Of a stretch of 15,763 bases of DNA, positions 1 through 15,763 are shown in pieces. Source of the DNA: Promethearchaeota archaeon (GTDB lineage: Archaea > Asgardarchaeota > Lokiarchaeia > Sigyniarchaeales > SOKP01); contig JBHLOI010000070.1 in the NCBI GenBank assembly GCA_048940645.1, positions 1 through 15,763 on the forward strand, written 5' to 3'. The notes below the pieces were generated by a model. It saw only the letters and a list, made by a program, of their open reading frames with translations, was not told where the DNA came from and did not search any database. How positions within the stretch are numbered: position 1 is the first letter of the stretch; each line of letters begins with the position of its first letter. A program made the position numbers and the translations under genes.

Positions 1-216
1 ACCATGTTCCCAGGAATTAAAGAACGTTTAACTAAGGAAATTAAAGAACAAATTCCTGAGAGTGTTGATGTAAAAATCATTGCTCCACCAGAACGTATGT
101 ATTCCGTTTGGATAGGTGGCTCAATCTTAAGTTCATTGAAAACATTCCACCGAATGTGGGTTACTAGACGCGAGTATAAGGAGATGGGCCCCCAAGTAAT
201 ACACCGATGCTTCTAA
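1..216 (+). CDS. Actin (Asgard/lokiactin-type), C-terminal fragment; the gene starts upstream of the window
   Basis: The frame is open from base 1 (ACC ATG...). [14 protein letters not shown]...[42 protein letters not shown] aligns with the C-terminus of eukaryotic actin (TMYPGIADRMQKEI...[48 protein letters not shown]). It is not MreB/FtsA-like. Confidence 0.96.
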
Positions 217-268
217 TGGGACAGTCTCCCACATTTTTTTTAGAAATTTTTTATTTTCCTTTTTTTTA
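217..268 (+). terminator. Putative terminator of the actin gene
   Basis: A TGGGA-cagtc-TCCCA stem-loop (217-231) follows the TAA directly, then T8 (234-241) and further T-tracts to ~268. Confidence 0.65.
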
Positions 269-421: not shown

Positions 422-928
422 ATGGTACAGAATTTGATAAAATTTAGCAAAAAACGTAGTATCTATTTCTTTTTATTTATAATGATTAGTTTATTTTGCA
501 TTTTCCCCTTTATCAAAGCTAGCACACAACAAACAAATCAAATCACTTGTACTTCACCAACATCTAACACATCATTGAAGCCTGGTGATAATACATATAT
601 TACATGGAGTACAGAAGGAGGAATTGAAATAATTAAGATCGATATCTATAAAGGTAGTGTTTTAAAATACGATATAGAAGAAACAAATAATGACGGTTCT
701 TTTTTATGGCGTGTTCCTTATAGTATAGAACCAGGGCCTGATTGGAGAGTTAAAGTTAGTGATTATTTTGATGAAGGAACTTATGATTTGAGTGATTATT
801 TTGAGATTACTCAAGAATTTACCATAATTGATATATTTGGTATACTTGGTATACTTGGTATAATTGGTATTATAGTTTTGGGAGTTGTTGGAGTAATTAT
901 ATTAATAAGAATTAATAAGAAGAAATAA
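422..928 (+). CDS. Membrane-anchored surface protein with a Kre9/KNH-like (Ser/Thr-rich GPI-anchored family) Ig-fold domain
   Basis: N-terminal signal peptide (KKRS + hydrophobic stretch + IKA). Domain pattern ITCTSP..G....ITW....IKIDIYKG....NDGSFLW.VP..I.PG.DWRVKVSD....D.SDYFEI. C-terminal Gly-rich transmembrane helix followed by RINKKK. Confidence 0.75.
   Translation: MVQNLIKFSKKRSIYFFLFIMISLFCIFPFIKASTQQTNQITCTSPTSNTSLKPGDNTYITWSTEGGIEIIKIDIYKGSVLKYDIEETNNDGSFLWRVPYSIEPGPDWRVKVSDYFDEGTYDLSDYFEITQEFTIIDIFGILGILGIIGIIVLGVVGVIILIRINKKK
839..874 (+). repeat. In-frame 9-bp tandem repeat encoding GIL-GIL-GII-GII in the TM anchor
   Basis: GGTATACTT GGTATACTT GGTATAATT GGTATTATA. Confidence 0.85.
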
Positions 929-1098: not shown

Positions 1099-2073
1099 AT
1101 GCCTGAAAGTGGAACTATCTTATATGATTTAAATAAAGTGTTTATTCCTTGCCGGACAGTATTAGAAATGGAGGCATTAACTGCCTTATTCCTTGAATAT
1201 TATAATTATGATGAGATAAAAGAAATACCAAGAAGTCAACCCTCGAGCCATAGACTTATAGAGGTTTTCAGAGTCATCGAGTGCGAACCGTTAGAAAGGA
1301 TAATTGAATATTTTATTGATGTTGTTGTCAGTAAATTAAAACCGATTGTCATGTATGAAAGGGATCATCATGATCGATTTCGAATGGGCAATGTAGTAGC
1401 TTATACACAAACACGAGTTTGTTTGTATTTAGCACTACATAGATTAAAGTTAAAATTTTTGCTTATAAAGCATTTCATGGATAAATTTAAAGAGAATAAT
1501 TATAAATTGGATTTATCAGAAGATCAAAAAGGATTAGGCGCACACAACTTTCTTTTTGCGTTTTATAACGACTATTATAAGAAGAATATGATGAATCTTA
1601 AATTAATGCTTTCAACTAAGCGCGTTTCCGATAGAGTAAGTCAATTAATGGATACCTCAAAAACTATTACAAATGAAGATATTATTAATGCAGTAACTTT
1701 CAAAAAATTTTTGGATGATAAAAATAGAATCAAATTCATCATGAAAGAAATTAAAGCTTCGTTATTTGTGTGTAAAGTTATGTTTGCCAATATGGATGTA
1801 TTCACACCTTTCACGATTGCCAAAGAAACTATGATTGATGCGGAGGAGATAATGATAAGTCAAGATTTTATCCCTGAATTAATTCCTGCTATATCTACTT
1901 GCATTGTAGAGGAAAATATGAATCAGCTTGAAGATTGCTTTAGAGCTTATGAATTTATGATGAATCGTGTTTTAGAAGGGATTAATAATGCGGTTGATAT
2001 TGCTTCTGGAGGTCAAATAAATCTTGGCTTGGAAGATACAATCTATAACACTGGAAATGTTTTTGAATTATAA
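1099..2073 (+). CDS. Hypothetical protein, 324 aa, soluble, probably alpha-helical
   Basis: Long ORF in AT-rich DNA with an ATG start and a TAA TAA double stop. No motif, signal peptide or TM segment recognised. Confidence 0.85.
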   Translation: MPESGTILYDLNKVFIPCRTVLEMEALTALFLEYYNYDEIKEIPRSQPSSHRLIEVFRVIECEPLERIIEYFIDVVVSKLKPIVMYERDHHDRFRMGNVVAYTQTRVCLYLALHRLKLKFLLIKHFMDKFKENNYKLDLSEDQKGLGAHNFLFAFYNDYYKKNMMNLKLMLSTKRVSDRVSQLMDTSKTITNEDIINAVTFKKFLDDKNRIKFIMKEIKASLFVCKVMFANMDVFTPFTIAKETMIDAEEIMISQDFIPELIPAISTCIVEENMNQLEDCFRAYEFMMNRVLEGINNAVDIASGGQINLGLEDTIYNTGNVFEL

Positions 2074-2092: not shown

Positions 2093-2410
2093 TTAGAGTT
2101 TATGAGTTGATTTTTGTTTAAGATCCTTCAATTTGTCTTTAAGTATTTCTCCATAAGGAATACCTACTTCAATATCAGAATGTCTTAGTCTACGAAGAAA
2201 TTTCGGTAATCCTTGCTCATTTAAAATTAATTCTAAAAAATTTTGATAAAACCCATCAATATTATCTAAAGCTAAATTAAAGTAAAACTCATTTCCATTA
2301 TCGGAAAGAGTGATATTTAAAATTTCCAGCAATCCAGTTACGGATTGCCTTATTTTTTCGAAATTTTTCGAAGCTTGTTCCACTGATTCGATATCAGTTT
2401 TTTTTTCCAT
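2093..2410 (-). CDS. Hypothetical protein, ~105 aa
   Basis: Converges on 1099..2073 with a 19-bp gap. The ATG at 2410 is preferred over the TTG at 2413. Amphipathic helical pattern; TATA-like element upstream. Confidence 0.7.
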   Translation of the reverse strand: MEKKTDIESVEQASKNFEKIRQSVTGLLEILNITLSDNGNEFYFNLALDNIDGFYQNFLELILNEQGLPKFLRRLRHSDIEVGIPYGEILKDKLKDLKQKSTHKL

Positions 2411-2448
2411 CAATATAAATACATCTCTAAGTAAAGGTAAACTTTCAA

Positions 2449-3194: not shown

Positions 3195-3396
3195 TTTTAT
3201 TTTTATTCAACAAACAATCAAACTCTTATATTATAAAAAAAAATCTTATTGTTTATCAAGTTATGTAAAATCATAATAAATATTTTTTTTAATTTTTTAG
3301 AAAAATTAAAAAAATAATAAGAAAAGACAAAAAAATAGATTTGAAAGAAGAATTCTAAGTTTTTAATAACTATTTATGACTTTATTTATTTCATAC

Positions 3397-6300
3397 TCAA
3401 TATTCAATTAACTTTCTTTCAATAATAGAATTAATTTGAGATATAATTTGCTCATCTGTAAAATGCTTTATCACCAGAGCTTGGTTAGTACAAGTTGCTC
3501 CACATACTCCACATCCTTTACATAATACTTGGTTTATTTCAATTTCATCTAGATCGTTCTTATAAATAGCATTATAAGGACAAACTGTTAAACAAACTTC
3601 ACACCCTGTACATAATTTTTTATTAAATTCAGGTAAACTTGATGTTGCACCCTCAACTGAGGCTTTAGCATTCATTAAAGGTATTAAAGCTCTAGATGCG
3701 GCTCCAAGAGCTTGACTTATTGACTCTTTAATGTTTTTAGGACATTGAGCGGTTCCACAAATAAAAATACCATCCGTCGCAAAATCAACAGGTCTTAATT
3801 TTGGATGAGCTTCAAAGAAGAATCCGTGACTATCTACCGGGACTTTTAACATTTCAGATAATTTTTTATTTTCTTCCCAAGCTATCAAGGGGGTTGCTAA
3901 TACTATTTTATCTACCTCCAAATCAAAATTAACTCTTGTAAGAAAATCTTTAACGTTTATTGATAATTTTCCCCCCTTATTTTTCAAATACGGTCGGTCA
4001 TTTGCCAAATATTGTATAAAATTAATTCCTTTTTCTCTAGCTTTTCTATATTCAATCTCTTCTTCATATGATACTCTGATATCCCGATATAATATAAAAA
4101 TTTGAGAATTTGGATATAACTTTTTGACGATTAAAGCATTTTTTATTGATTCAGAACAACAAGTCAATGAACAATAAGTCCTTCCTTCTTCTTCACGAGA
4201 ACCTACACATTGAATAAAAGCTATTTTTTCACCATCTTTCAAGTGATTACTTCGAATTAGATTCTCGAATTCTAAATTAGTGAAGATATTTTTACTTTTT
4301 TCATACTTATAAAATCCCTTTGGTTTAAATTCTTGTCCTCCCACAGCAACAATAATGGTGCCAACATTAATATCCTTTAAGACTCCATCCTGACCAATGC
4401 TTACTTTAAAATCCCCTATTGAACCCTTTACAGAATTAACTAAAGAGGATGTAAGTACTTCTATATTTGGATTGGTTCTTATAGCTTGAATCATTGGAGT
4501 TAAAATTTGCTCTGGAGGAGTTTCATCAGGATCAATACTATGTAAGTTTCGGATAAATCCACCAAGTTCTTCATCCCGCTCAACAAGAAATACTCTGAAT
4601 CCTTTTTTAGCGATTGCTAGTGAAGAGGTCATACCAGTTATACCTCCCCCTATAACTAAAGCAGAAGGTAATACATTAACTTCTATATCGTACAATGGTT
4701 CTACGAGTCTTGCTTTTGATACGGTCATTAAAATCTGCTCTTTTGCTTTTTGAGTAGCTCTTTCAGGTTCAGACATATGAACCCAACTAACTAATTCTCT
4801 TATACTAGCAAATAAAACTAAATAGGGATTTAGACCTACTTTAGCACATGTGGCTTGGAATAGTGGAAGATGGGTTCTCGGAGTACATGCTGCAATAATA
4901 ACTCTATTTAAGTCATATTTTTTAATTGCTTCTTGAATACTTCTTTGCGACTCTTCAGAGCAGGTATATAAATTTCTTTCAACATAAATTATTTCATGAA
5001 TAGTTTGAATTTCTTCTGCTATTTTTTCTACATCTACGAAATCAGCTATATTTGAACCACAATGACATATAAAAACCCCAATTCGAAGTGGATCTTCACG
5101 CAAAACTTTTTTTTCAAAAATCTCCTCTTTTTCTTCTTCTATGGCCTTTAATGAAGTTCTGCTAACCGCTCTACTGGCTGCTCCACTGGCTTCTGCAACG
5201 GACGTTGAAATATCTTCTGGACCATGAGCACACCCGCATACATAAATTCCTGGAACGTTTGTTTCGATATTGTTAAATGGCACTGTTGATTCTACAAAAC
5301 CATATTCATCCATATTAACTCCAAGAATTTGGTTTAATTTGTTTGATCCTCTGCTAGGAATAACTGCTGGAAAGAGAACTACCATATCCACAGTTTCAAA
5401 TTTAACTTCACCTGATTCAAAATCAATGTGTTTTATTATTAAATTCTTTGTTTCAGGAACCTCATATATTTTGTTAGGTAATCCTTTGATATAATGTACC
5501 TTATAGTCTGATTTAGCTCTTTCAATAAATTCATTATGATTTTTTCCAATAGTTCGTAAATCATTATAATAAACCTCAATTTCAGCGTCTGGATGGTGTT
5601 CCATAGTCATTATTGCTTCTTTTGTAGCATACATACAACAGATTTTAGAACAATATGGATTTAAACCAATATTCCTCGATCCAACACATAAAATAAAACC
5701 TATCTTGTGAGGATGTTTATTATCTGAAGGCCGTAATATTTCTCCTTTAGTTGGTCCTGATGCACACATTATTCGTTCATATTCCATGGATATAATGACA
5801 TTTGAATATTCTCCATAACCATACCTACTTAACGAGCTTACATCCATTAAGTCAAAACCACAAGCATTAATGATAGAAGCAACCTCGATTTCAATTTCTT
5901 GTGGTTTTTGCTCAAAATCTACTGCATGAGTTGGGCAAAATTTTTCACATACTTTACATGTACCATTTTTAAAATAAATACAATTATCTTCATCTATCAG
6001 ATAAACAGCAGGAACTGCCTGAAGGAAAGGAATATATGCCGCGCCTCTTTTAATAAGTCCTTGGTCAAATTCAGAAGGAAACTTTTTATATGGACATTTT
6101 TTTGCGCAAGTTCCACATGATGTACATTTTGAAGCGTCAATATAACGAGGTTTGCATAGAATTTTTACTTTAAAGGCAGAGCCATTATTAATAGGGTCTA
6201 CTTTTTGTACTTCTGAATAAGTTAAAAGTTTAATTCGAGGATGACGTGCACATTCGACCATTTTAGGTGCTAAAATACATATTGAGCAATCTAAAGTGGG

Positions 6301-6462
6301 AAAAGTTTTATCTAATTGGGCCATTTTACCTCCTATTGATGGAGATCTCTCCACTAAATAAACAAACTCACCTTGATCTGCAAGATCTAAGGCGGCAGAA
6401 ATCCCTGCTACACCTCCCCCAATTACCAAAATTTGGTTTTCATAACTCTTATTTCGTATCAT
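3397..6462 (-). CDS. hdrA: Double-module HdrA-like FAD/Fe-S protein (~1000-aa, BamE-like architecture), 1021 aa
   Basis: Module 1: VIGGGVAG, LDKTFPTLDCSICILAPKM, inserted 2x[4Fe-4S] ferredoxin, CVGSR...YCSKICCMYATK. Module 2: RIGVFICHCG...CS...ACTPRTH, VIGGGITG, CVGSR...YCSLTCC, EAHPKLRPVDFATDGIF, C-terminal 2x CxxCxxCxxxC. Confidence 0.93.
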   Translation of the reverse strand: MIRNKSYENQILVIGGGVAGISAALDLADQGEFVYLVERSPSIGGKMAQLDKTFPTLDCSICILAPKMVECARHPRIKLLTYSEVQKVDPINNGSAFKVKILCKPRYIDASKCTSCGTCAKKCPYKKFPSEFDQGLIKRGAAYIPFLQAVPAVYLIDEDNCIYFKNGTCKVCEKFCPTHAVDFEQKPQEIEIEVASIINACGFDLMDVSSLSRYGYGEYSNVIISMEYERIMCASGPTKGEILRPSDNKHPHKIGFILCVGSRNIGLNPYCSKICCMYATKEAIMTMEHHPDAEIEVYYNDLRTIGKNHNEFIERAKSDYKVHYIKGLPNKIYEVPETKNLIIKHIDFESGEVKFETVDMVVLFPAVIPSRGSNKLNQILGVNMDEYGFVESTVPFNNIETNVPGIYVCGCAHGPEDISTSVAEASGAASRAVSRTSLKAIEEEKEEIFEKKVLREDPLRIGVFICHCGSNIADFVDVEKIAEEIQTIHEIIYVERNLYTCSEESQRSIQEAIKKYDLNRVIIAACTPRTHLPLFQATCAKVGLNPYLVLFASIRELVSWVHMSEPERATQKAKEQILMTVSKARLVEPLYDIEVNVLPSALVIGGGITGMTSSLAIAKKGFRVFLVERDEELGGFIRNLHSIDPDETPPEQILTPMIQAIRTNPNIEVLTSSLVNSVKGSIGDFKVSIGQDGVLKDINVGTIIVAVGGQEFKPKGFYKYEKSKNIFTNLEFENLIRSNHLKDGEKIAFIQCVGSREEEGRTYCSLTCCSESIKNALIVKKLYPNSQIFILYRDIRVSYEEEIEYRKAREKGINFIQYLANDRPYLKNKGGKLSINVKDFLTRVNFDLEVDKIVLATPLIAWEENKKLSEMLKVPVDSHGFFFEAHPKLRPVDFATDGIFICGTAQCPKNIKESISQALGAASRALIPLMNAKASVEGATSSLPEFNKKLCTGCEVCLTVCPYNAIYKNDLDEIEINQVLCKGCGVCGATCTNQALVIKHFTDEQIISQINSIIERKLIEY

Positions 6463-6476
6463 TTTATTCTCACATC

Positions 6477-6899
6477 CTAATGTTCTATATTAAATGGTCC
6501 TAATGTAATTAGTTGCTCTGTAAAATCTTTTACTATATCTGCAAACTTTGCCCCTTCTGCCGATGAAACCCATTCTAATCTAAGTCTTTCTGGTTCAATT
6601 CTTAAAAGTTCAAGTAACTTTTGAGTTTTCTTAATTTGTTCCTGAGCTTTTTCATTTCCCGAAAGATAATGGCAATCTCCGATATGGCAACCACATACCA
6701 AAACTCCATCACCACCACGATTAAAAACATCAAGTATTAAAGATGGCTCGATTCTACCGGAACACATTACCCTTATTATTCTAATAGTGGGAGGATATTG
6801 AAAACGGCTTACTCCTGCTAAATCAGCTCCAGCATAACCACACCAATTACATAAAAATGTAATTATTTTAGGAATAAATTCTTCTTGATTTTGATCCAC
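6477..6899 (-). CDS. mvhD: MvhD/FlpD-type [2Fe-2S] hydrogenase delta subunit, 140 aa
   Basis: FLCNWCGYAGADLAG, IRVMCSGR, GCHIGDCHY..GN, ERLRLEWVSSAEG. GTG start with SD GAGGTGA upstream. Confidence 0.95.
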   Translation of the reverse strand: MDQNQEEFIPKIITFLCNWCGYAGADLAGVSRFQYPPTIRIIRVMCSGRIEPSLILDVFNRGGDGVLVCGCHIGDCHYLSGNEKAQEQIKKTQKLLELLRIEPERLRLEWVSSAEGAKFADIVKDFTEQLITLGPFNIEH

Positions 6900-6905
6900 A
6901 TTTAT

Positions 6906-6912
6906 TCACCTC
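6906..6912 (-). promoter_or_regulatory. Shine-Dalgarno site GAGGTGA for mvhD
   Basis: The minus strand reads AAGAGGTGAATAAATGTG, with 8 nt between GAGGT and GTG. Confidence 0.7.
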
Positions 6913-6913
6913 T

Positions 6914-9900
6914 TTATCTTAAATATGCTTGAACCATAGCGGTTAATTGTTGATTTGTAAAATGTTTTAAAGATATGGCCCCAACAGGGCAAACACCTTC
7001 ACAAGAGCCGCACCCTTTGCACAAAGCTGGAAGGATTCTAGATTTATATCGGATTAAACTTACAGATGGAACTACTGAATCCAGTATAGCTTTAAATTCA
7101 CTTATAGTCTCAATCACCTCTATAGCATCATATATACATGTATCCCGACATTCCCCGCAACCTATACATTTTTCTTCTTCAATTTCTGCAGTTGATCCTA
7201 TAATTTTCATTTTATCTTTGGATAAAATTGTACCTGCTCTGGCAGCTGCTCCTTTTGCTTGGGCAATTGTTTCATTGATAAATTTTGGCCATTGAGCTGT
7301 TCCACATAAGAAAATTCCATCAGTAGCAAAATCAAGAGGACGCAATTTAACATGTGCTTCTAGGAAAAATCCATTTTGTTCAAGAGGAACTTTTAACATC
7401 TGGGATAATTCTTTATTTTCTGTTGGCAAAAAGGCAGCACTCAATACAATAAGATCTGGTTTAATAACTATTTGTTCATTTAAACAAGAATCATTTACAG
7501 TAACCATCAACTTGCTGTTTATAATATTAACCTCGGGTTCGAGTTTTTCATCATATCGGATAAAAATAACCCCTTTTTCTCTAGCTTCCCGATAATAATC
7601 CTCCTTGAAACCATAAGTTCTAACATCTCTATATAGAATGCAAATATTAATATTAGGGTATTTCTCTTTTAACTTTAAAGCATTTTTTAATGCAACAGAA
7701 CAACATATTCTATTACAATTAGGTCGTTTTTCATTTCTAGAACCAACACATTGAATCATTACTACTGTTTTCGCATCTACTTCGTTTAAAACGATTTTTT
7801 GTTCCAATTCTTGTTGAGTTAATATTCTTTCATCTTTTCCATACATATATTCCATTGGAATATATTCTGTTCCACCTGTAGCAACTATGATTACTCCAGA
7901 ATCAAGTTGTTTTTTTTCACCATTTTGATTCACTGTAATTAAAAAATTTCCAACGAATCCTTGTATATCTTCAATAGTCGCATTTGTGAATATTTTAATT
8001 TTATCGTGATTTAAAATTTGATTAATAAGTTTTCCGAGATATTCTTGAGGATCCCCACCTTCTAAAAGATAATGTATCTTTCTCACAAATCCGCCAAGCT
8101 CTTTTTCTTTTTCAATCAAATAAACATCAAAGTCTTGATTTGCTAATTCTAATGCGGCATTCATTCCAGCTATTCCACCACCTATTACTAGTCCAGAGTT
8201 TGTAACCTCTACAGATGTTTCATATATGGGTTCTAACAGTTCAGCTTTGGAAACATTCATCGCAACAAGGTCTTTTGCTTTTTCTGTTGCGTCTTCAGGT
8301 TTGGACATATGAACCCAAGAACATTGTTCCCTAATATTAGTTAATTCGAATAAATAAGGATTTAAACCCGCTTCTCGGATTGTATTGTGGAAAAGGGATT
8401 CGTGTGTTCGAGGAGTACACGAAGCTACAACAATCCTATTTAATTTATGTTCTTTTATTATTTGTTTTATTTTATCTTGGGTATCTTGGGAGCAAGTATA
8501 CAAATTTTCTTCGGTATAAACGACATTAGGAAGAGTTTTTGTAAACTCTACTACTTCAGGGACATTTACAATCCCGCCGATGTTTATCCCACAGTGGCAA
8601 ATAAATACTCCAATCCTAGCTTCTTGATTTTCAATTGGAACTTCAGGGGGATATTCTTTTATAGTTGTTAATGTATTTCTTTCAGTAGAAAGCAATGAGG
8701 AGACTTTTCCAGCAGCACCACTTGCTTCTGCTACTGTTTCAGGAATATCTTTAGGACCAGAACAAGTTCCACATACAAAAATCCCTGGCTTATTTGTTTC
8801 CATAGGATTAAATATATTTGTATAATAAAAATTATATTTATTGAGATTAACTCCCAATTTTTTACTCAAATCAATAATAGAATTCGAAGGTTGTAAACCT
8901 ATAGAAAGAACAACCATATCAAAATTTTCTATTAATACTTTCCCAGTTTCAGTATTTTCATAAGCTATAATTAAATTTTTCGTATGCGGATTTTCATCAA
9001 TCAACGCAATTTTTCCTCTTAAGAATTTGATCCCTAATTCTTGAGCTCTTTGATAATATTCCTCAAATCCTTTTCCATAAGCTCTTATATCAATAAAAAA
9101 AATGTGACAATCAATATCTGATTCATGCTCTTTTGCAATTATTGCTTCTTTAATTGCATACATACAACAAACTGCTGAACAATAATCATTACCTATTCTT
9201 CGATCTCTTGAACCAATACATTGTATCCATGCTAATTTTTCTGGTACTTTTCCGTCGGAAGGCCTTAATACATGACCTATAAAAGGTCCAGATGCGCTCA
9301 ATATTCGTTCAAATTCGGAACTTGTTATTACATTCGGAAATCGCCCATATCCATACTGTTTTAGAGATAATGGGTTATAGAGCGTAGATCCTTGAGCAAT
9401 GATTATTGAACCGACATTTAAAGGAATCAATTCTTCTTTTTGAGCAAAATCAATAGCTCTTGCTTCACATATATATTCACATAACCGGCAACCTAAACAA
9501 ATTGTTCTATCTATAGAGGGTAATTTTGGAATAGCTTGTGGATATTTAATATAAATGCTTTTACGTTTTCGCAATCCCTCATCATATTCACTTAAAGTTT
9601 CAATCGGACACCAGCTTGAACATAGTCCACAACCCGTACATTTATCTTCATTAATATATCTTGGATACTTTTTTAACATTACATTGAAATTTCCTACTGT
9701 ACCTTCTACCTTCTCAATTTCAGCTTGAGTAATGATTTGAATGTTTGGATGTCGACCCACCTCTACTAATTTAGGACTTAAAATGCACATTGCACAGTCA
9801 TTTGTAGGAAATGTTTTATCCAATTGACTCATTATTCCGCCTATAGCGGAAGAACTTTCTACCAAGAAGACTTTAAACCCTAATTCTGCCAGATCTAATG

Positions 9901-9976
9901 ATGTTTGTATCCCGGCAATTCCCCCCCCTAGTACTAATACTGCTCCTACTTTATTCTTAGATTCAATTATACTCAT
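6914..9976 (-). CDS. hdrA: Double-module HdrA-like FAD/Fe-S protein (BamE-like architecture), 1020 aa
   Basis: VLGGGIAG, LDKTFPTNDCAMCILSPK, inserted ferredoxin, CIGSRD...YCSAVCCMYAIK; then RIGVFICHCG...SCTPRTHE...NIREQCSWVH, VIGGGIAG, CVGSR...CNRICC, EAHVKLRPLDF, C-terminal ferredoxin. ATGA overlap with the upstream gene. Confidence 0.93.
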   Translation of the reverse strand: MSIIESKNKVGAVLVLGGGIAGIQTSLDLAELGFKVFLVESSSAIGGIMSQLDKTFPTNDCAMCILSPKLVEVGRHPNIQIITQAEIEKVEGTVGNFNVMLKKYPRYINEDKCTGCGLCSSWCPIETLSEYDEGLRKRKSIYIKYPQAIPKLPSIDRTICLGCRLCEYICEARAIDFAQKEELIPLNVGSIIIAQGSTLYNPLSLKQYGYGRFPNVITSSEFERILSASGPFIGHVLRPSDGKVPEKLAWIQCIGSRDRRIGNDYCSAVCCMYAIKEAIIAKEHESDIDCHIFFIDIRAYGKGFEEYYQRAQELGIKFLRGKIALIDENPHTKNLIIAYENTETGKVLIENFDMVVLSIGLQPSNSIIDLSKKLGVNLNKYNFYYTNIFNPMETNKPGIFVCGTCSGPKDIPETVAEASGAAGKVSSLLSTERNTLTTIKEYPPEVPIENQEARIGVFICHCGINIGGIVNVPEVVEFTKTLPNVVYTEENLYTCSQDTQDKIKQIIKEHKLNRIVVASCTPRTHESLFHNTIREAGLNPYLFELTNIREQCSWVHMSKPEDATEKAKDLVAMNVSKAELLEPIYETSVEVTNSGLVIGGGIAGMNAALELANQDFDVYLIEKEKELGGFVRKIHYLLEGGDPQEYLGKLINQILNHDKIKIFTNATIEDIQGFVGNFLITVNQNGEKKQLDSGVIIVATGGTEYIPMEYMYGKDERILTQQELEQKIVLNEVDAKTVVMIQCVGSRNEKRPNCNRICCSVALKNALKLKEKYPNINICILYRDVRTYGFKEDYYREAREKGVIFIRYDEKLEPEVNIINSKLMVTVNDSCLNEQIVIKPDLIVLSAAFLPTENKELSQMLKVPLEQNGFFLEAHVKLRPLDFATDGIFLCGTAQWPKFINETIAQAKGAAARAGTILSKDKMKIIGSTAEIEEEKCIGCGECRDTCIYDAIEVIETISEFKAILDSVVPSVSLIRYKSRILPALCKGCGSCEGVCPVGAISLKHFTNQQLTAMVQAYLR

Positions 9977-10737
9977 TTAATCTCTCCTCCCTCTTTAATA
10001 AATATTGCAGTTTTATCCTTGATATTAAATGTTATTTTATGCTCATCATTCAATGTAATAAGATGTTCCATAACTTTTTCTGGAGGAATTGACAACATAC
10101 TTGAAATCTCTTCTGCTGATAAACCTTTTTCTTCAATTTGATTTTGAATCTTAACTTTAAGTAATTCAGTTTCTATTATTTCATCTAGTATTATTTCAAA
10201 TTTCTCCTCAGGAATTTTTTCATTATAAACGTTTTCAATTTCAACTAAATCTCTTTCTCTACTAATTAACCATCTGAGTCTAAAGTCAGAACATATTTGT
10301 TTGGCATAAAATAAACGCTTTCTCAAATCTCTATCAGACCTAACAGGTGAAGCTCCTAATGTTAACATTTCTTCAGTAAATTCAGTAATTAAATCTGCAA
10401 ATTTTCTCCCCTCTGCGGCAGATACCCATTCAAGCCGTAACCTTTTTGGCTCGAACCCAATTTTTTCAAGTATCTTTTTAGTCATTAAAACTTTATATTT
10501 TGTATGATAATTTCCTGAAAGATAGTGGCAATCTCCAGGGTGACATCCCGTTACTAATACTCCATCTAAACCCCTTTCGAACGCTGTTATTATAAAAATT
10601 GGATCAATTCTTCCGCTACACATTACTCTAATTATCCTAAGGTTTGGTGGATAGTTAAGTCGTGAAACACCTGCAAGATCAGCACCTGCATATGAGCACC
10701 AATTACATAAAAATCCTAAAATTTTAGGCTGATACAT
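9973..10737 (-). CDS. mvhD: MvhD-type [2Fe-2S] subunit with a C-terminal extension ending in a putative winged HTH, 254 aa
   Basis: Residues 1-130 carry FLCNWCSYAGADLAG, RVMCSGR, GCHPGDCHY and RLRLEWVSAAEG. About 120 extra residues end in GLSAEEISSMLSIPPEKVMEHLITLNDEHKI. The start directly abuts the upstream stop (TAAATG). Confidence 0.9.
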   Translation of the reverse strand: MYQPKILGFLCNWCSYAGADLAGVSRLNYPPNLRIIRVMCSGRIDPIFIITAFERGLDGVLVTGCHPGDCHYLSGNYHTKYKVLMTKKILEKIGFEPKRLRLEWVSAAEGRKFADLITEFTEEMLTLGASPVRSDRDLRKRLFYAKQICSDFRLRWLISRERDLVEIENVYNEKIPEEKFEIILDEIIETELLKVKIQNQIEEKGLSAEEISSMLSIPPEKVMEHLITLNDEHKITFNIKDKTAIFIKEGGEIK

Positions 10738-12444
10738 TTAAACACCCTTCTCTAATAATCCTTTTGATATTGCATATATTTGTTCAAATATTTGAGGATC
10801 CTTAAAGTGTTTTATCGAAATCGCATTTAAAGGACAGCTTGCTCCACATACTCCACAACCCTTACAAACAGCTGAAATAATAGTGGATTTTAATCCTTTT
10901 TCTGTTCTTTCAATTTGTATTGCATTATATGGACAGATCATTTCACATGCCCCGCATCCAATACACATTTCAGAATCAACAGTAGCAATGGCGCCCTCTA
11001 CTTGAATTTCTTTATGAGATAAAATTGTACTTGCTCTTGATGCCGCAGCATAACCTTGAGTTATAGCTTCTGTAATATCTACAGGCCATTTTGCTGAACC
11101 CCCTATGTATATTCCGTCCGTAGCAAAATCATTGGGACGTAATTTTACGTGAGCTTCTAAAAAGAATCCGTTGGCTCCTAATGGAACTTTTAATAACTGA
11201 GCTAATTCTTTATTATCATCGTTAGCAACTAGAGGAGTAGATAATACTAATAAATCATAAGGAATTATTATATAATCTCCCATGTATTCATTAAATACTT
11301 TTATAAGATTTTCTTCTATAGAAGGTAATTTATCAAGATCGTATTTTATAAAGATTATTCCTTTTTCTCTTGCAGTTCTATAATATTTTTCATAATTAGT
11401 CCCGGGAGTGTATAAATCTCTAAATAATATCGTTACATTTGCACCAGGGTTTTTATCTTTAATAATTAAAGCATTTTTTAAAGCAGTCATACAACAAACA
11501 CTTGAACAATAAGGTCTTTCGTCAATACGAGAACCTACACATTGTATCATTACAATATTGTTGGCATCTACTTCATTATTTTTTAATTTAGATTCTAATT
11601 CGTACTGTGTTATTCTTAATTTACCGTCATATTCAAAAAACTTAAAAGGAGTAAAAAGCGAGGCCCCTACAGCTACTATAATTACTCCTACTGTTAAATT
11701 AATAATATTATCATTTTGTTCAATTTCTATTTCATAATTCCCAACGAAACCCTCAATGCTTTTTACTCTAGCTGGTTTATGGACTTCTAAATTCGGAGCA
11801 TTTTGAACTTTATTCTTAATATCCTCGATTAATTCTGAAGCCTCTGTATCATAAGGAAATAGTTTATAGAGTAAATTTAGTCTTCCACCTAATTCATTCT
11901 CCTTTTCAACAAGATATGTTTTGAAGCCCTGTCTACTTAAATTAAGTGCTGCACTCATTCCTGAGATTCCGCCACCAATTATTAAAGCAGTAGGGGTTAC
12001 ATCAATCGTAATCATTTCTAAAGGTTCTAATTTTGTGGCTTTAGCCACTCCCATGGCAATCAGATCTATTGCTTTCTCGAATGCTTCTTTAGGATATTTC
12101 ATATGAACCCAAGTACATTGATCTCTAATATTAACAAAATTAAAGAGGTAAGGGTTTAGTCCCGCTTCTAAAATGCATTCACGAAATAAAGGTTCATGCG
12201 TTCTAGGAGTACAAGCAGCCACAACTACGCGATTTAAATCATACTCTTTTATAGCTTTTTTAATGCTGGATAAACCTATTTCTGAACATGTATATAAATT
12301 ATCTTCAGCATATGCCACATTTGGTAATTTCTTCACATATTTAACAAGCTCTTTACAATTTATTAATCCTCCAATATTGGAACCACAATGACAAACAAAG
12401 ATCCCTACTCTAACTTCTTTTTCATTTTTTTCTTCAACCGACAT
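10738..12444 (-). CDS. hdrA: Short single-module HdrA-like FAD/Fe-S protein, 568 aa
   Basis: RVGIFVCHCG...CS...ACTPRTHE, IIGGGISG, CVGSR...YCSSVCCMTALK, EAHVKLRPNDF, C-terminal 2x[4Fe-4S]. It lacks DKTFPTxDCxxC and the inserted ferredoxin. Confidence 0.92.
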   Translation of the reverse strand: MSVEEKNEKEVRVGIFVCHCGSNIGGLINCKELVKYVKKLPNVAYAEDNLYTCSEIGLSSIKKAIKEYDLNRVVVAACTPRTHEPLFRECILEAGLNPYLFNFVNIRDQCTWVHMKYPKEAFEKAIDLIAMGVAKATKLEPLEMITIDVTPTALIIGGGISGMSAALNLSRQGFKTYLVEKENELGGRLNLLYKLFPYDTEASELIEDIKNKVQNAPNLEVHKPARVKSIEGFVGNYEIEIEQNDNIINLTVGVIIVAVGASLFTPFKFFEYDGKLRITQYELESKLKNNEVDANNIVMIQCVGSRIDERPYCSSVCCMTALKNALIIKDKNPGANVTILFRDLYTPGTNYEKYYRTAREKGIIFIKYDLDKLPSIEENLIKVFNEYMGDYIIIPYDLLVLSTPLVANDDNKELAQLLKVPLGANGFFLEAHVKLRPNDFATDGIYIGGSAKWPVDITEAITQGYAAASRASTILSHKEIQVEGAIATVDSEMCIGCGACEMICPYNAIQIERTEKGLKSTIISAVCKGCGVCGASCPLNAISIKHFKDPQIFEQIYAISKGLLEKGV

Positions 12445-12584
12445 TATAATTTTATCCTCTTTTAATTATTTCTGCTTTTTTTGTTACCGTTCTACTTATT
12501 TCACCAACCAACCGATGTACATCCATTTGATCAAAATTTTAAGCATAAATTCTTTATAAGATTTTACCATTTAGCGGCAGCTTT

Positions 12585-14324
12585 TTAATCTAAATATGAT
12601 TTATTCATAGTTAATAATTGTCGTAAAGTGAAATGTTTCAGTGATAAGGCTTCCTCTGGACATACATCGACACAAATACCACATCCATTACATACTGCTG
12701 GAAGAACTTTCGATTTATAGCGAGTTAAATTATATGTTAGTTTTGATATATCTCTTATTGCTTTTAGCCCTGATTGAGTTTCAATGATTTCTATAGCATT
12801 GTAAGCACATGAATCCCTACAATTTCCACATCCAGTGCACAATTCCTCATCTATTTCAGCAATAGAACCTACAATATTGATTTTATCTTTTGATAAAATC
12901 GTGCCTGCTCTTGCAGCAGTTCCTAATGCTTGAGAAGTTGTCTCATTAATAAATTTTGGCCATTGTGCAGCTCCACATAAGAAAATTCCATCAGTTACAA
13001 AATCAAGTGGCCTTAATTTAACATGTGCCTCTAAGAAAAATCCATTTTTATCAAGAGGAACTTTAAGTATTTGTGATAATTCTTTATTTTCTGATGGTAA
13101 AAAAGCAGAACTTAATACTACCAAATCTGTATTAATTTTTATTAGCTCATTTAATAGAGTATCATTTATTGTAATTGTCAATTCTTTATCATCGATTTCT
13201 ACTGTTGGTTCAAAGCCTTCATCGAATCGAATAAAAATAACTCCTTTTTCCCTTGCCTTATTGTAATAATTTTCTTTAAAGCCATATGCCTGTATATCTC
13301 TATAAAGAATACAAATATTTATTTTACTATTTTCCTCTTTTAATTTTAAAGCATTTTTAATTGCCTCCAAACAGCAAATTCTACTGCAATTAGGACGTTC
13401 TTCATTTCTAGATCCTACACATTGGATCATAGTGACTGTTTTCGCACTTACTTCATTTGAGACTATTTTTTGTTCAAGTTCTAATTGAGTCAAAATTCGC
13501 TTATCCATTCCATATAAGTATTCTTTTGGTTTGTACTCTCTTCCTCCAGTCGCCACTATTACCACTCCTGTATCGATTTTTTCTTGTTTATTATTTTGTT
13601 TTATTATAGCTGAAAAATTTCCAATGAAACCATGTAATTCATCTATTGTTGCATTAGTAAAAACTTTAATTTTCTTATGATTTTCAACTTGTTCGATAAG
13701 ATTTCTGAGGAATTCTTTAGGATTTCCCTCACCTAAAACATAATGAATTTTCCTTACAAGTCCTCCAAATTCTTTTTCCCTTTCAACTAAATAGGTATCA
13801 AAACCTTGTCGCCCTAAGCTAAGAGCTGCTGTTAATCCCGCTATTCCACCACCGATTATTAATGCAGAATGAGTAATATCAACTGTAGTTTCATAAATTG
13901 GTTCAAGAAGTTTGACTTTTGAAACGTTTACTGCAATAAGATCTCTTGCTTTGTCCATAGCCCTTTCAGGTTCAGACATATGCATCCAAGAACATTTGTC
14001 TCTAACATTTACTAACTTAAACAAATATGGGTTTATTCCAGTTTCTCTAATTGTATTCTGGAAAAGATTTTCATGCGTTCTAGGTGTACAAGACGCTATT
14101 ACAATCCGATCTAAATTATATTCCTCTATTGCATTTTTAATACCGGTTAGTCCTGGTTCTGAGCATAAGTACAAATTATCTTCAGAATATTCAACATCAG
14201 GCAATGTCCTGGCAAAATTCGCAAGTGCTTTACAATCTAAAATACCTCCTATATTTGAGCCACAGTGACAAACGAAAACACCTATTCGTATAGTTTCCTC
14301 TTTACTGTTTACTTTTTCAAACGT
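12585..14324 (-). CDS. hdrA: Short single-module HdrA-like protein, ~579 aa; start extended from 14204 to a probable ACG at 14324
   Basis: The frame is open to 14330 and reads ACG-F-E-K-V-N-S-K-E-E-T-I-R-I-G-V-F-V-C-H-C-G-S-N-I-G-G...R-T-L-P-D-V-E-Y, so the conserved CHCG motif precedes the TTG at 14204. SD GAGGT lies at 14338-14334. The product call is secure; the exact start is inferred. Confidence 0.85.
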   Translation of the reverse strand, partial: TFEKVNSKEETIRIGVFVCHCGSNIGGILDCKALANFARTLPDVEYSEDNLYLCSEPGLTGIKNAIEEYNLDRIVIASCTPRTHENLFQNTIRETGINPYLFKLVNVRDKCSWMHMSEPERAMDKARDLIAVNVSKVKLLEPIYETTVDITHSALIIGGGIAGLTAALSLGRQGFDTYLVEREKEFGGLVRKIHYVLGEGNPKEFLRNLIEQVENHKKIKVFTNATIDELHGFIGNFSAIIKQNNKQEKIDTGVVIVATGGREYKPKEYLYGMDKRILTQLELEQKIVSNEVSAKTVTMIQCVGSRNEERPNCSRICCLEAIKNALKLKEENSKINICILYRDIQAYGFKENYYNKAREKGVIFIRFDEGFEPTVEIDDKELTITINDTLLNELIKINTDLVVLSSAFLPSENKELSQILKVPLDKNGFFLEAHVKLRPLDFVTDGIFLCGAAQWPKFINETTSQALGTAARAGTILSKDKINIVGSIAEIDEELCTGCGNCRDSCAYNAIEIIETQSGLKAIRDISKLTYNLTRYKSKVLPAVCNGCGICVDVCPEEALSLKHFTLRQLLTMNKSYLD

Positions 14325-14336
14325 TTTTTCTCAACC

Positions 14337-15596
14337 TCATCTATCTTTCCGAGCTAATAATAACTCCTCCTTTTTTTCAACTGAAGACTTCATCATATTT
14401 GCAATTAAATTTGTTAAGTCAGAGACTTCTAACTTGATTTCATCAGCTATATACTCTTTTTTCTCTTGTAACATGCAATTATAATGAATTTGGCATTTTG
14501 GACATGTAGTTACCAATAAGTCAGCAACATTCTTTGCTTCTTTTATTCTATCAAGCTGTAAAGCCTTTGATAAATCATTACAATTTATAAAACAACTTAC
14601 TCCACAACACATAGAATTTTCTCTTGTTCTTTGCATTTCATTAAAATCAATTCCGTGTTTTTTCATCGAATTTAGGATATCTCTTGGAGGAGAATAAACT
14701 TTCATATGTCTTCCTAATCTGCAAGGATCGTGATAAGTAACTGCCTGATTAGGAGAATCTAAAAATTCAAATTGACTATTTTTGATTTTATCAGCAATTA
14801 ATTCTGTAAGATGAATTACTTCAAAATTGACATTTACATATTTAGGATAGTCTATTTTTAGCGTTCTATAACATTCAGCACACGTAGTTACGACAGTTTT
14901 TATACCTAATTCATTAATTTTATTTACATTATGGATCGCTAATTTTTTAAAAATGTTAAAATATCCCTTCCATAAGGCGTCATGACCGCAACATTTCATA
15001 TTTTCAATAATTACAGGCGGTTGTTTAAGAATTTCGGTTAAAATCTTTATTCCATTCTTGGCAATTTCTACTAGGTTTAATTGCAAATTACTAAATACAA
15101 CATCTAAAATTGGTAGGCATCCAAAGAAATATGCAACATTTCTTTTTTTAGATTTTTTATAATTTTTTGGCATTAAATCAGTGGGTACTTTAAGGCCTGA
15201 TGAATAATTTGCTTGTATTTCAGAGATAAGAGTGATAATTCCATGATGTGTTTCTTCATATTTGATTCCCTTATCTATTAATAACCTTCTAGCGGATTTT
15301 ATGAATTCAATAAAATCTATATCTTGAGGACAAGATTCCTTACACTTTCGGCAAGTTAAACAATATTTAAGAACACTTTCATCTAAAATTTGATTTTTTG
15401 CTCCTAATACTGCTAATTTAGTCATTTCATGTGGATTTAAAGGGAATTGTTCTGCAATAGGACAACTTGAAGTGCACATTCCACATTGGAAACACGCTAA
15501 AATACTTTTTGCTTCTTCAATTTTGGATAATTCTTTAATTAAATCTGTATCAAAATCAGAACTTTTAATGGTATTCTGTATTTTATTATCTGAAAT
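14337..15596 (-). CDS. HdrD/BamD-like Fe-S protein (2x[4Fe-4S] ferredoxin plus two CCG domains), ~419 aa; start extended from 15479 to a probable ATT at 15596
   Basis: The frame is open to 15599 and completes the first cluster motif CFQCGMCTSSCP, so the listed ATG is inside the motif. Also CLTCRKCKESCP, YFFGC...KCCGHD...TTCAEC and YHDPCRLGR...MCCG...TTCPKC. Confidence 0.88.
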   Translation of the reverse strand: MSDNKIQNTIKSSDFDTDLIKELSKIEEAKSILACFQCGMCTSSCPIAEQFPLNPHEMTKLAVLGAKNQILDESVLKYCLTCRKCKESCPQDIDFIEFIKSARRLLIDKGIKYEETHHGIITLISEIQANYSSGLKVPTDLMPKNYKKSKKRNVAYFFGCLPILDVVFSNLQLNLVEIAKNGIKILTEILKQPPVIIENMKCCGHDALWKGYFNIFKKLAIHNVNKINELGIKTVVTTCAECYRTLKIDYPKYVNVNFEVIHLTELIADKIKNSQFEFLDSPNQAVTYHDPCRLGRHMKVYSPPRDILNSMKKHGIDFNEMQRTRENSMCCGVSCFINCNDLSKALQLDRIKEAKNVADLLVTTCPKCQIHYNCMLQEKKEYIADEIKLEVSDLTNLIANMMKSSVEKKEELLLARKDR

Positions 15597-15602
15597 AATT
15601 CA

Positions 15603-15609
15603 TCACCTT
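15603..15609 (-). promoter_or_regulatory. Shine-Dalgarno site AAGGTGA for the first operon gene
   Basis: The minus strand reads TAAGGTGATGAATTATTTCA, with 8 nt between AAGGT and the ATT at 15596, the same spacing as for mvhD at 6899. Confidence 0.6.
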
Positions 15610-15763
15610 ACTGAAAAGATTTTATCTCAAATAAAACACTCAAAAACAAAATATACTATTAGTTTTTTTTCTATTTTACAAGTAAATTTAAAAGAAATTA
15701 AAATATTTAAATGCAATGATCGATTCCGACAATAAAAACACAAAAAAATTTTCGATCACAATA

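Follow-up and report, generated by a model that had tools for sequence, protein, structure and literature searches.

Asgard archaea are thought to live by the syntrophic disposal of electrons, and they carry many complexes of the heterodisulfide reductase (Hdr) type, none of which has to our knowledge been purified. We describe here a 12-kb cassette of seven genes for HdrD-, HdrA- and MvhD-type proteins, located at positions 3397-15596 (minus strand) of a 15,763-nt stretch of DNA from a Promethearchaeota archaeon, which in its full length is referred to as the window. Several systems built from such subunits have been described. Class II benzoyl-CoA reductase of Geobacter metallireducens, Bam[(BC)2DEFGHI]2, has been solved by cryo-electron microscopy; its BamE subunit contains clusters E1-E7, and its BamF subunit is more than 100 amino acids longer than MvhD and holds BamI by means of a winged helix-turn-helix (wHTH) domain (10.64898/2026.04.10.717634). 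Complementary tandem or fused HdrAs, sometimes accompanied by HdrD-like proteins, occur in anaerobic methanotrophic archaea (ANME), and the pattern is also found in Moorella (Chadwick et al. 2022, PMC9012536). The classification of HdrA into type II (A3/A4) and A12 is given by Lyu et al. 2025 (PMC12054007), who also mention, as unexplained, ANME-1 clusters in which several copies of hdrA are the only functional genes. FlxABCD-HdrABC of Desulfovibrio and syntrophs is on record for Prometheoarchaeum MK-D1 and for further Asgards (Imachi et al. 2020, PMC7015854), as are multiple copies of hdrA and mvhD in Asgard genomes (PMC11227280). By sequence, the closest solved relatives of the cassette proteins are found in MvhAGD-HdrABC of hydrogenotrophic methanogens (PDB 5ODC, 8RVU, 7BKB; E = 1e-201 for HdrA, 2e-49 for MvhD and 8e-16 for HdrC).

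Our analysis suggests, with moderate confidence, that the cassette is an accessory unit with its own promoter, and that its products form a soluble HdrA-type bifurcating or confurcating assembly with a BamDEF-like core, comparable also to the type II HdrA clusters of ANME and methanogens, which is fed by modules encoded elsewhere in the genome. The content of the genes, their motifs and folds, the genomic position of the cassette, its conservation and its accessory status are results of the analysis. The pairing of the subunits, the redox partners and the direction of the reaction are drawn from analogy with the systems named above and should be read as a proposal.

Subunits and cofactors of the cassette

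An open reading frame (ORF) check together with Pfam and NCBIfam searches bore out the seven co-oriented genes that an earlier note on this DNA had placed on the minus strand at 3397-15596. In the order of transcription they encode an HdrD-like protein, two HdrAs of about 570 amino acids, a long MvhD, an HdrA of 1020 amino acids, an MvhD of 140 amino acids and an HdrA of 1021 amino acids, with spacers of 15, 140, 0, -4, 14 and 14 nt between the genes. The cofactor inventory of the note was reproduced by a motif count, which gave six GxGxxG motifs for flavin adenine dinucleotide (FAD), 26 [4Fe-4S]-type sites and two MvhD [2Fe-2S] sites. No hydrogenase, Fdh, Flx, FrhB, MetVF or aldehyde oxidoreductase (AOR) gene was found among the seven genes with Pfam or NCBIfam. 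The operon does lack an input enzyme, as had been claimed, but the accompanying statement that hdrB and hdrC are missing was too strong, since the HdrD-like protein is itself a fusion of HdrC and HdrB. There are no internal stops in the seven genes and every FAD and cluster ligand is intact; all of these ligands are also kept, at 72-86% protein identity, in L044, an independent 73-kb contig of another species ('Promethearchaeota archaeon 9R3_44'). The spacer between the two half-sized HdrA genes (12445-12584) is 140 nt long here, whereas its length in L044 is only about 21 nt and in L048, a Joint Genome Institute (JGI) metagenome contig, about 70 nt; the extra 115 nt or so are AT-rich, and the TATA-like strings in them might form an internal promoter.

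The two large HdrAs, hdrA1020 (6914-9976, minus strand) and hdrA1021 (3397-6462, minus strand), each have two thioredoxin reductase (TrxR)-like FAD domains, with two GxGxxG motifs and two sets of TrxR-cluster Cys residues, and seven cluster sites by motif count; the NCBIfam models HdrA2 and HdrA match them in three stretches. Their N-terminal halves correspond to residues 146-511 of HdrA in 5ODC, including the CxxC at 194/197, the inserted two-cluster ferredoxin domain, E356 and K409, and in both the 5ODC alignment and an alignment of the six modules these halves have neither an N-terminal FeS domain nor a ferredoxin domain at the C-terminus. The C-terminal halves, together with the smaller proteins hdrA578 (12585 to about 14321, minus strand) and hdrA568 (10738-12444, minus strand), are the complement of the N-terminal halves, in that they align to 5ODC residues 2-155 and 506-648 and lack the CxxC of Cys197 and the inserted ferredoxin domain. 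In NCBIfam the two smaller proteins map to positions 1-232 and 318-644 of the HdrA2 model, and both, like the C-terminal halves, consist of N-terminal FeS, FAD/TrxR and C-terminal ferredoxin domains. Judged by sequence, the two fused proteins are type II HdrAs as published (fused A6 and A12 modules, A3/A4 class); hdrA578 and hdrA568 are A12-class type I HdrAs, the class being assigned from the published description (PMC12054007). The count of six FAD modules in the earlier note is correct, but the six are not equivalent, as two are of the A6 type and four of the A12 type. Equivalents of K409 and E356 and the four-Cys TrxR cluster are kept in all six. By the wiring logic of the published structures, a complete bifurcation path would be present only in the two fused proteins.

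The A12-type modules were compared in a maximum-likelihood tree of 24 rows. hdrA568 falls inside a clade of stand-alone A12 genes from a canonical FlxABCD-HdrABC cluster, a copy of which neighbours the cassette (see below), and is 71.5% identical to the A12 gene of that copy. The canonical type II genes form the sister group of the hdrA1020 C-half, and the C-half of hdrA1021 belongs to a different lineage, grouping with type II genes of G006 and G046, two genomes with simpler related operons. hdrA578 and its L044 orthologue are sister to the hdrA1020 C-half (Shimodaira-Hasegawa-like approximate likelihood ratio test, SH-aLRT, 100; 65% identity), so hdrA578 is a de-fused partial duplicate of its neighbour which predates the split of the two species. 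Both fusion and de-fusion of HdrA halves give rise to new subunit types.

The start of hdrA578 is unusual. It has no canonical start codon, and the length of 579 amino acids given in the earlier note is not fixed by the sequence. An ATG that overlaps the stop of the hdrD-like gene (ATGA) is one base out of frame and precedes a run of A6; a run of A5 in its place, at window positions 14321-14345 (minus strand), would put this ATG in frame. The orthologues in L044 and L048 have a normal ATG and a different junction. The odd start could reflect a homopolymer error, a strain polymorphism, a frameshift or the use of an ATA start after GAGG.

The hdrD-like gene (14337-15596, minus strand) encodes a fused HdrC and HdrB protein of 419 amino acids with two cubane and two complete CCG motifs (Pfam CCG, 4.6e-21): CxxCxxCxxxC lies at residues 35 and 79, CCG at 202 and 330, and CxxC at 239 and 365. 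The N-terminal part can be aligned to HdrC, starting at residue 7, and the C-terminal part to HdrB; the best NCBIfam match is TfrB at 152.9 bits, far under the cutoff of 385. No in-frame ATG, GTG or TTG precedes the first Fe-S motif, and about 40 conserved residues that can be aligned to HdrC lie upstream of the first ATG. A Shine-Dalgarno (SD)-like AAGGTGAT (15602-15609, minus strand) is invariant in three orthologous loci, and 5 nt on it is followed by ATT in the window (15594-15609), by ATA in L044 (L044:9990-10006) and by ATT in L047, another JGI metagenome contig (L047:1135-1152). The gene start as first annotated, which lacks a canonical codon, has been corrected to the likely ATT at 15596, and this is probably a real AUU/AUA initiation codon, which may limit the amount of HdrD that is made. 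The orthologues in G006 and G046, which are more distant, have an ATG start. We reject an assembly error as an explanation for the missing start codon, the feature being common to three independent sequences.

Both MvhD proteins belong to the MvhD/FlpD family (PF02662; 184.5 and 178.8 bits against a cutoff of 22.3) and have Cys in the CNWC motif, and MvhD matches 5ODC_D at E = 2.3e-49. The short one (6477-6899, minus strand; 140 amino acids; Pfam FlpD 4.9e-53) has a GTG start. The long one (9973-10737, minus strand; 254 amino acids; Pfam FlpD 8.3e-55) consists of an MvhD domain (1-130), a conserved linker and a winged-helix tail (about 186-250). The earlier note had read a winged helix into this 125-amino-acid extension, and an AlphaFold2 model built from an alignment of 20 homologues agrees with it (pLDDT 85), with an MvhD fold (Foldseek TM 0.89 to 5ODC_D) that is followed by a conserved helical linker and then by a winged helix whose Foldseek matches are ArsR/SmtB-type domains (probability 1.0, rmsd 1.2-1.7 Å over 56-60 columns, E ~0.03). 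A rule by which the long MvhD would always be flanked by two HdrA units, with the short one closing the chain, was tried and fails, as short MvhDs lie between HdrAs in the window, in G006 and in G046.

A tail of this fold could also belong to a redox-sensing transcription factor, in which the state of the [2Fe-2S] cluster is coupled to hdr expression by winged-helix DNA binding. The ArsR/SmtB-like matches, sub-threshold HTH_5 and PF0610-like matches in Pfam and a short palindrome (ATCGAT) in the promoter are what such a regulator would call for, but we consider it very improbable. The tail is acidic (net -5, pI 4.9), 16 of 20 homologues being neutral to acidic, and its putative recognition helix PEKVMEHLITLND has more acidic than basic residues; furthermore, the BamF tail of the same kind can dock a protein, and the gene is in every case part of an hdrA operon, with translational coupling to the genes next to it. 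A regulon defined by the palindromic ATCGATCAT in the promoter was dropped as a candidate, as the genome has 25 occurrences against 47 expected from composition. By analogy with BamF we infer that the tail is a docking element rather than a DNA binder, and it is plausible that the two MvhDs dock donor enzymes encoded elsewhere.

Genomic context and accessory insertion

The window is the entire contig C10 of a metagenome-assembled genome (3.83-Mb, 126 contigs, 89.6% complete), and the former description of the operon as bounded upstream by intergenic DNA had a basis of 167 nt only. The last 77 nt of C10 (15687-15763), read as the reverse complement, match exactly the final 77 nt of contig C45, on the side of an frhB-like gene, and the first 77 nt are identical to the end of contig C50; each link is unique in the bin, and k-mer overlaps of this 77-nt type are found at 108 of the 252 contig ends of the assembly. 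In operon orientation the order is C45, C10, C50. The join of C45 to C10 is backed by collinearity with a contig of the sister genome G018 (G018:C19) and by L044, in which the region is a single contig. A further join, of C32 to C45, is probable from a split A12 gene, there being no k-mer link.

Co-oriented with the cassette, C45 carries an A12 hdrA, a long mvhD, a type II hdrA, an mvhD and flxC-like, flxB-like (Fer4_22), flxA-like (FAD_binding_6, NAD_binding_1 and DHODB Fe-S) and frhB-like genes, and the end of C32 carries the start of the A12 gene of C45 together with an A6 hdrA, an hdrB-like and an hdrC-like gene. By its gene content this is the FlxABCD-HdrABC cluster, with an added frhB-like gene, that is known from MK-D1 and other Asgards, and it is conserved across the genus and the order, including two closed genomes. 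The description of the cassette as self-contained can be kept for the operon, which has no input gene, but not for its surroundings, since a co-oriented Flx/FrhB/HdrA cluster lies just past 15763, and C32, which carries hdrB and hdrC, probably continues it.

The same arrangement is found in one piece in L044, where flxC, flxB, flxA, the frhB-like gene and a spacer are followed by all seven cassette genes in the same order, with identities of 75% for HdrD, 72% for hdrA578, 81% for hdrA568, 82% for the long MvhD, 86% for hdrA1020 and 78% for hdrA1021. This identical arrangement confirms the C45-C10 join and excludes a misassembly of tandem paralogues, a concern raised in the earlier note; part of the order (HdrD, A578-like, A568-like) is seen again in L048. 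It might still be supposed that the array is an assembly artefact or a set of decaying, redundant paralogues without a function of their own, as a canonical start is missing from two genes, the contig has a break at either end and the genome has HdrA loci enough (at least 14) for redundancy to be possible. This is scarcely credible given the same order in two independent assemblies, the intact frames and ligands at 72-86% identity to another species, and the conservation of the odd hdrD-like start and its SD motif in three sequences.

G018:C19 follows the gene order of C45, its main collinear segments being 75-89% identical in amino acids. There, 155 nt past the frhB-like gene come an Lrp gene, a gene for a 324-amino-acid protein and a 97%-identical actin gene, and the cassette is absent; the same two flank points are 12,994 nt apart in the C45-C10 scaffold. 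As the sister genome has the same flanks without the block, the cassette is an accessory insertion of about 13 kb between the frhB-like gene and lokiactin. An HdrD-like orthologue of more than 60% identity is present in two of the 41 other genomes of the genus, and a metagenome scan with the HdrD-like query matched only two short contigs. The slot between the frhB-like and actin genes is a hotspot for the gain and loss of entire bifurcation cassettes.

The far flank of the insertion slot is formed by the lokiactin gene, which is split by the break between C50 and C10 (window 1-267, plus strand, joined through the 77-nt overlap to G000:C50:8846-9852, where it starts). The C50 ORF is an actin (Pfam Actin, 2.9e-108) and ends at about window position 267. 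With an actin gene straddling the start of the contig, the earlier assignment of the host to the Asgard archaea is supported. Between lokiactin and the operon are a gene at 422-928 (plus strand) for a 168-amino-acid protein with a weak Kre9/KNH Ig-like match, an ORF at 1099-2073 (plus strand; 324 amino acids) that has no Pfam match and is 86% conserved at the same place in G018, and an ORF at 2093-2413 (minus strand; 106 amino acids), also with no Pfam match. An Lrp/AsnC gene lies downstream of the operon.

The stop of the frhB-like gene and the start of the co-oriented hdrD-like gene are 579 nt apart. Between the window and L044 this spacer is 57% identical, apart from conserved blocks in its last 200 nt. 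One of these, the 24-nt GGAATCGATCATTGCATTTAAATA (15727-15704, minus strand), ends in TTTAAATA (15704-15711), which resembles an archaeal TATA box and is located some 105 nt upstream of where the hdrD-like gene starts; like AAGGTGAT, the block is near-invariant in the window, L044 and L047, with divergent flanking DNA; on the archaeal TATA consensus it is a putative promoter. T-runs follow the frhB-like gene, and two oligo-T runs 60-90 nt past the last stop of the cassette (3308-3335, minus strand) read like a terminator and may act as one. In L047 an unrelated ABC permease gene, followed by a 700-nt spacer, precedes the hdrD-like gene with its promoter block, and no frhB-like gene is found within 1.1 kb. 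The TATA-like block, the T-runs after the frhB-like gene and the presence in L047 of the block without Flx-FrhB favour a separate transcription unit, and the cassette is probably transcribed on its own. The earlier note had asked whether HdrBC or input genes beyond 15763 are co-transcribed with the cassette; such neighbours do exist, but the TATA-like box, the 579-nt spacer and the context in L047 argue that their transcript is a separate one.

It is possible, though in our judgement unlikely, that the cassette is an add-on to the adjacent Flx-Hdr-FrhB cluster, co-regulated or co-assembled with it and using FlxABC (with NAD(P)H) and the FrhB-like protein as its input. Counting the inferred C32 part, the two clusters together would make up about 27 kb and 18 co-oriented genes. 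The position of the cassette, 579 nt downstream of flxC-flxB-flxA-frhB-like in this genome and likewise in L044, points this way, as do the kinship of hdrA568 and hdrA1020 with the canonical A12 and type II genes and the use in both clusters of a long MvhD with the same tail. However, a conserved TATA-like block and an SD motif belong to the cassette itself, which is set off by the T-runs, no frhB-like gene lies within 1.1 kb of the hdrD-like gene and promoter block in L047, the canonical cluster occurs without the cassette in sister genomes, and the relatives in G006 and G046 stand in other genomic contexts.

These relatives are simpler. The operon in G006 consists of HdrD, A12, MvhD and type II, and that in G046 of HdrD, a 782-amino-acid GltD-bearing (type III-like) HdrA, MvhD, type II, MvhD and FrhB-like. 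The 782-amino-acid HdrA-like protein (L027, G046:C9, 14615-16963), which replaces the A12 HdrAs, has a GltD/DPD-type Fer4_20 plus Pyr_redox_2 NAD(P)H module, and the G046 operon is a related form of the cassette with NAD(P)H- and FrhB-type input modules built in. Seen against these relatives, the cassette is a mosaic expansion of a four-gene core.

Proposed electron flow

In the assembly that we favour, fed from elsewhere and built on a BamDEF-like core, each fused HdrA together with one MvhD would be a bifurcating unit, the fused HdrA acting as a pseudo-heterodimer. The A6-type N-module would supply the bifurcating FAD, the CxxC of Cys194/Cys197 and the inserted ferredoxin domain. Mid-potential electrons would pass from the MvhD [2Fe-2S] cluster and the C-terminal ferredoxin domain of the A12-type module to the FAD of the N-module. 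From there the high-potential electron would go by way of the TrxR-domain cluster to the HdrD-like protein, and the low-potential electron through the CxxC to the cluster of the N-terminal domain, contributed by the A12-type C-module, then to the inserted ferredoxin domain and probably to ferredoxin. Since both non-cubane cluster motifs are kept in the HdrD-like protein, its probable task is to reduce or oxidise a disulfide/thiol couple or to pass electrons on to a carrier, for example electron-transferring flavoprotein (ETF). The two stand-alone A12 HdrAs have no low-potential exit and would probably be electron-collecting or connecting units, although their intact FADs would allow direct hydride input. 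In a syntrophic amino-acid fermenter the confurcating direction may apply (context in PMC7015854).

The donor would probably be an FrhB-like or Flx-type module from elsewhere in the genome, one of each lying immediately upstream; the long MvhD would dock it with its acidic winged-helix tail in the way that BamF docks BamI. Candidates are plentiful. The genome has at least 12 FrhB-like genes and three NiFe hydrogenase loci (large subunits on C94, C85 and C31, not at the cassette) that, like the adjacent Flx set, could serve as donors, and two EtfAB pairs that are possible acceptors for HdrD. HdrA family loci lie on C11, C13, C20, C28, C31, C32/C45, C54, C58, C70, C77, C94 and C107, and many of them are arranged as HdrD-like, type II HdrA and MvhD. 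On C11 (G000:C11:136800-142650) a 1657-amino-acid frame that follows another HdrD-like gene is conserved in at least four sister genomes; its product resembles a type II HdrA with the N-module interrupted by an insert of about 490 amino acids, and this insert could be of the GltD type (type III-like), placed within a fused HdrA. Loki-type genomes hold a large and partly accessory HdrA repertoire, of at least 14 loci in this case.

Several points weigh against this proposal. The K409 and E356 equivalents are kept in all six modules, unlike in BamE, whose second FAD site has Gln, so that the A12 modules may be catalytic and not mere scaffolds. One HdrD for two fused HdrAs, and four A12 modules for two A6 modules, do not fit a simple BamDEF stoichiometry. 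Docking by the winged helix is proposed from analogy and charge. Finally, we know of no disulfide substrate for any Asgard Hdr enzyme, and of no heterodisulfide in this host.

The conservation of the FAD sites bears on a further explanation, that the operon is truly self-contained. The stand-alone A12 HdrAs would then be the input sites, where an exposed FAD would directly oxidise a soluble hydride carrier (F420H2 or NAD(P)H), a route proposed for Methanosarcina HdrA2; in a variant the assembly would only shuttle electrons between ferredoxin and an HdrD-level couple, and three HdrA dimer units could bifurcate in two stages. The residues of all six FAD modules would suit such a role, a cassette without an input gene recurs in at least three contexts, hdrA578, once duplicated, was maintained at 72% identity, and both direct use of F420H2 and two-step bifurcation are published hypotheses (PMC12054007). 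We nevertheless regard this as distinctly unlikely. By motif count the A12 modules have no second dinucleotide-binding motif, they lack Cys197 and the inserted ferredoxin domain, and the G046 operon, with a GltD-bearing HdrA in the A12 position and an FrhB-like protein, suggests that the lineage normally needs such modules; moreover, direct hydride entry at HdrA has never been shown structurally. More speculative still, and in our opinion quite improbable, is a serial chain in which three HdrA dimer units (A578/A568, HdrA1020 and HdrA1021) are wired through two MvhDs to one HdrD and carry out serial bifurcations on direct hydride input. Were this true, unusually low potentials could be reached, or the chain could run in reverse for syntrophic electron disposal, and the archaeal lineage closest to eukaryotes would possess a self-sufficient multi-stage bifurcation machine.

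The cassette is compact and intact and has no input enzyme in cis, which makes it a convenient target for heterologous expression of type II cores and orphan A12 halves. The role of asymmetric type II HdrAs and A12 halves is equally at issue in ANME and methanogens.

Comparison with described systems

The gene order had not been recognised from any characterised system, and our literature search likewise found none with the same order, nor any description in Asgards of a module set in the ratio 2:4 or of an accessory hdr cassette. The resemblance to BamDEF that was pointed out earlier, for which we relied on the published description in the preprint cited above, holds in the double HdrA with seven [4Fe-4S] clusters and two FAD domains, in the HdrD-like high-potential subunit and in the extended MvhD with a winged helix as in BamF. 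The differences are also considerable. Genes for the AOR-type BamBC and the HydABC-like BamGHI are absent from the operon and from the 10 kb upstream; the second FAD module of the cassette proteins has Lys in place of the Gln of BamE; neither CCG motif is disrupted, in contrast to BamD with its modified distal non-cubane cluster; the MvhDs have Cys where BamF has selenocysteine; and the cassette has two fused HdrAs, two extra half-HdrAs and one HdrD. HdrDE, the membrane-bound heterodisulfide reductase that depends on methanophenazine, was considered as a further relative, but the ORF list and Pfam gave no membrane or cytochrome (HdrE) gene in the window.

The type II clusters of ANME and Methanosarcinales share with the cassette fused or tandem HdrAs from which Cys197 and the N- and C-terminal domains have been lost in a complementary manner, the retention of K409 and E356 in both halves, the presence of several hdrA genes and, occasionally, an HdrD-like protein and MvhD. 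Their hosts use the heterodisulfide CoM-S-S-CoB, and the clusters usually include FdhB/FrhB, a non-catalytic molybdopterin protein and HdrBC, whereas the cassette has no input gene, combines two A6 with four A12 modules and includes one A12 gene that arose when a type II gene was de-fused. FlxABCD-HdrABC is built from the same HdrA and MvhD blocks; the cassette differs from it in the lack of flxABC, in having HdrD in place of separate HdrB and HdrC, and in its absence from most sister genomes. With MvhAGD-HdrABC the cassette proteins share the cofactor-binding residues, but the methanogen HdrA is a homodimer of complete subunits working with hydrogenase or Fdh, while the HdrAs of the cassette are asymmetric fused or half units. 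Because the defining partners are absent or the defining residues differ, the cassette is not a Bam, a Flx-Hdr or a Mvh-Hdr system. Its parts are of known types, and it is their combination that is unusual and lopsided.

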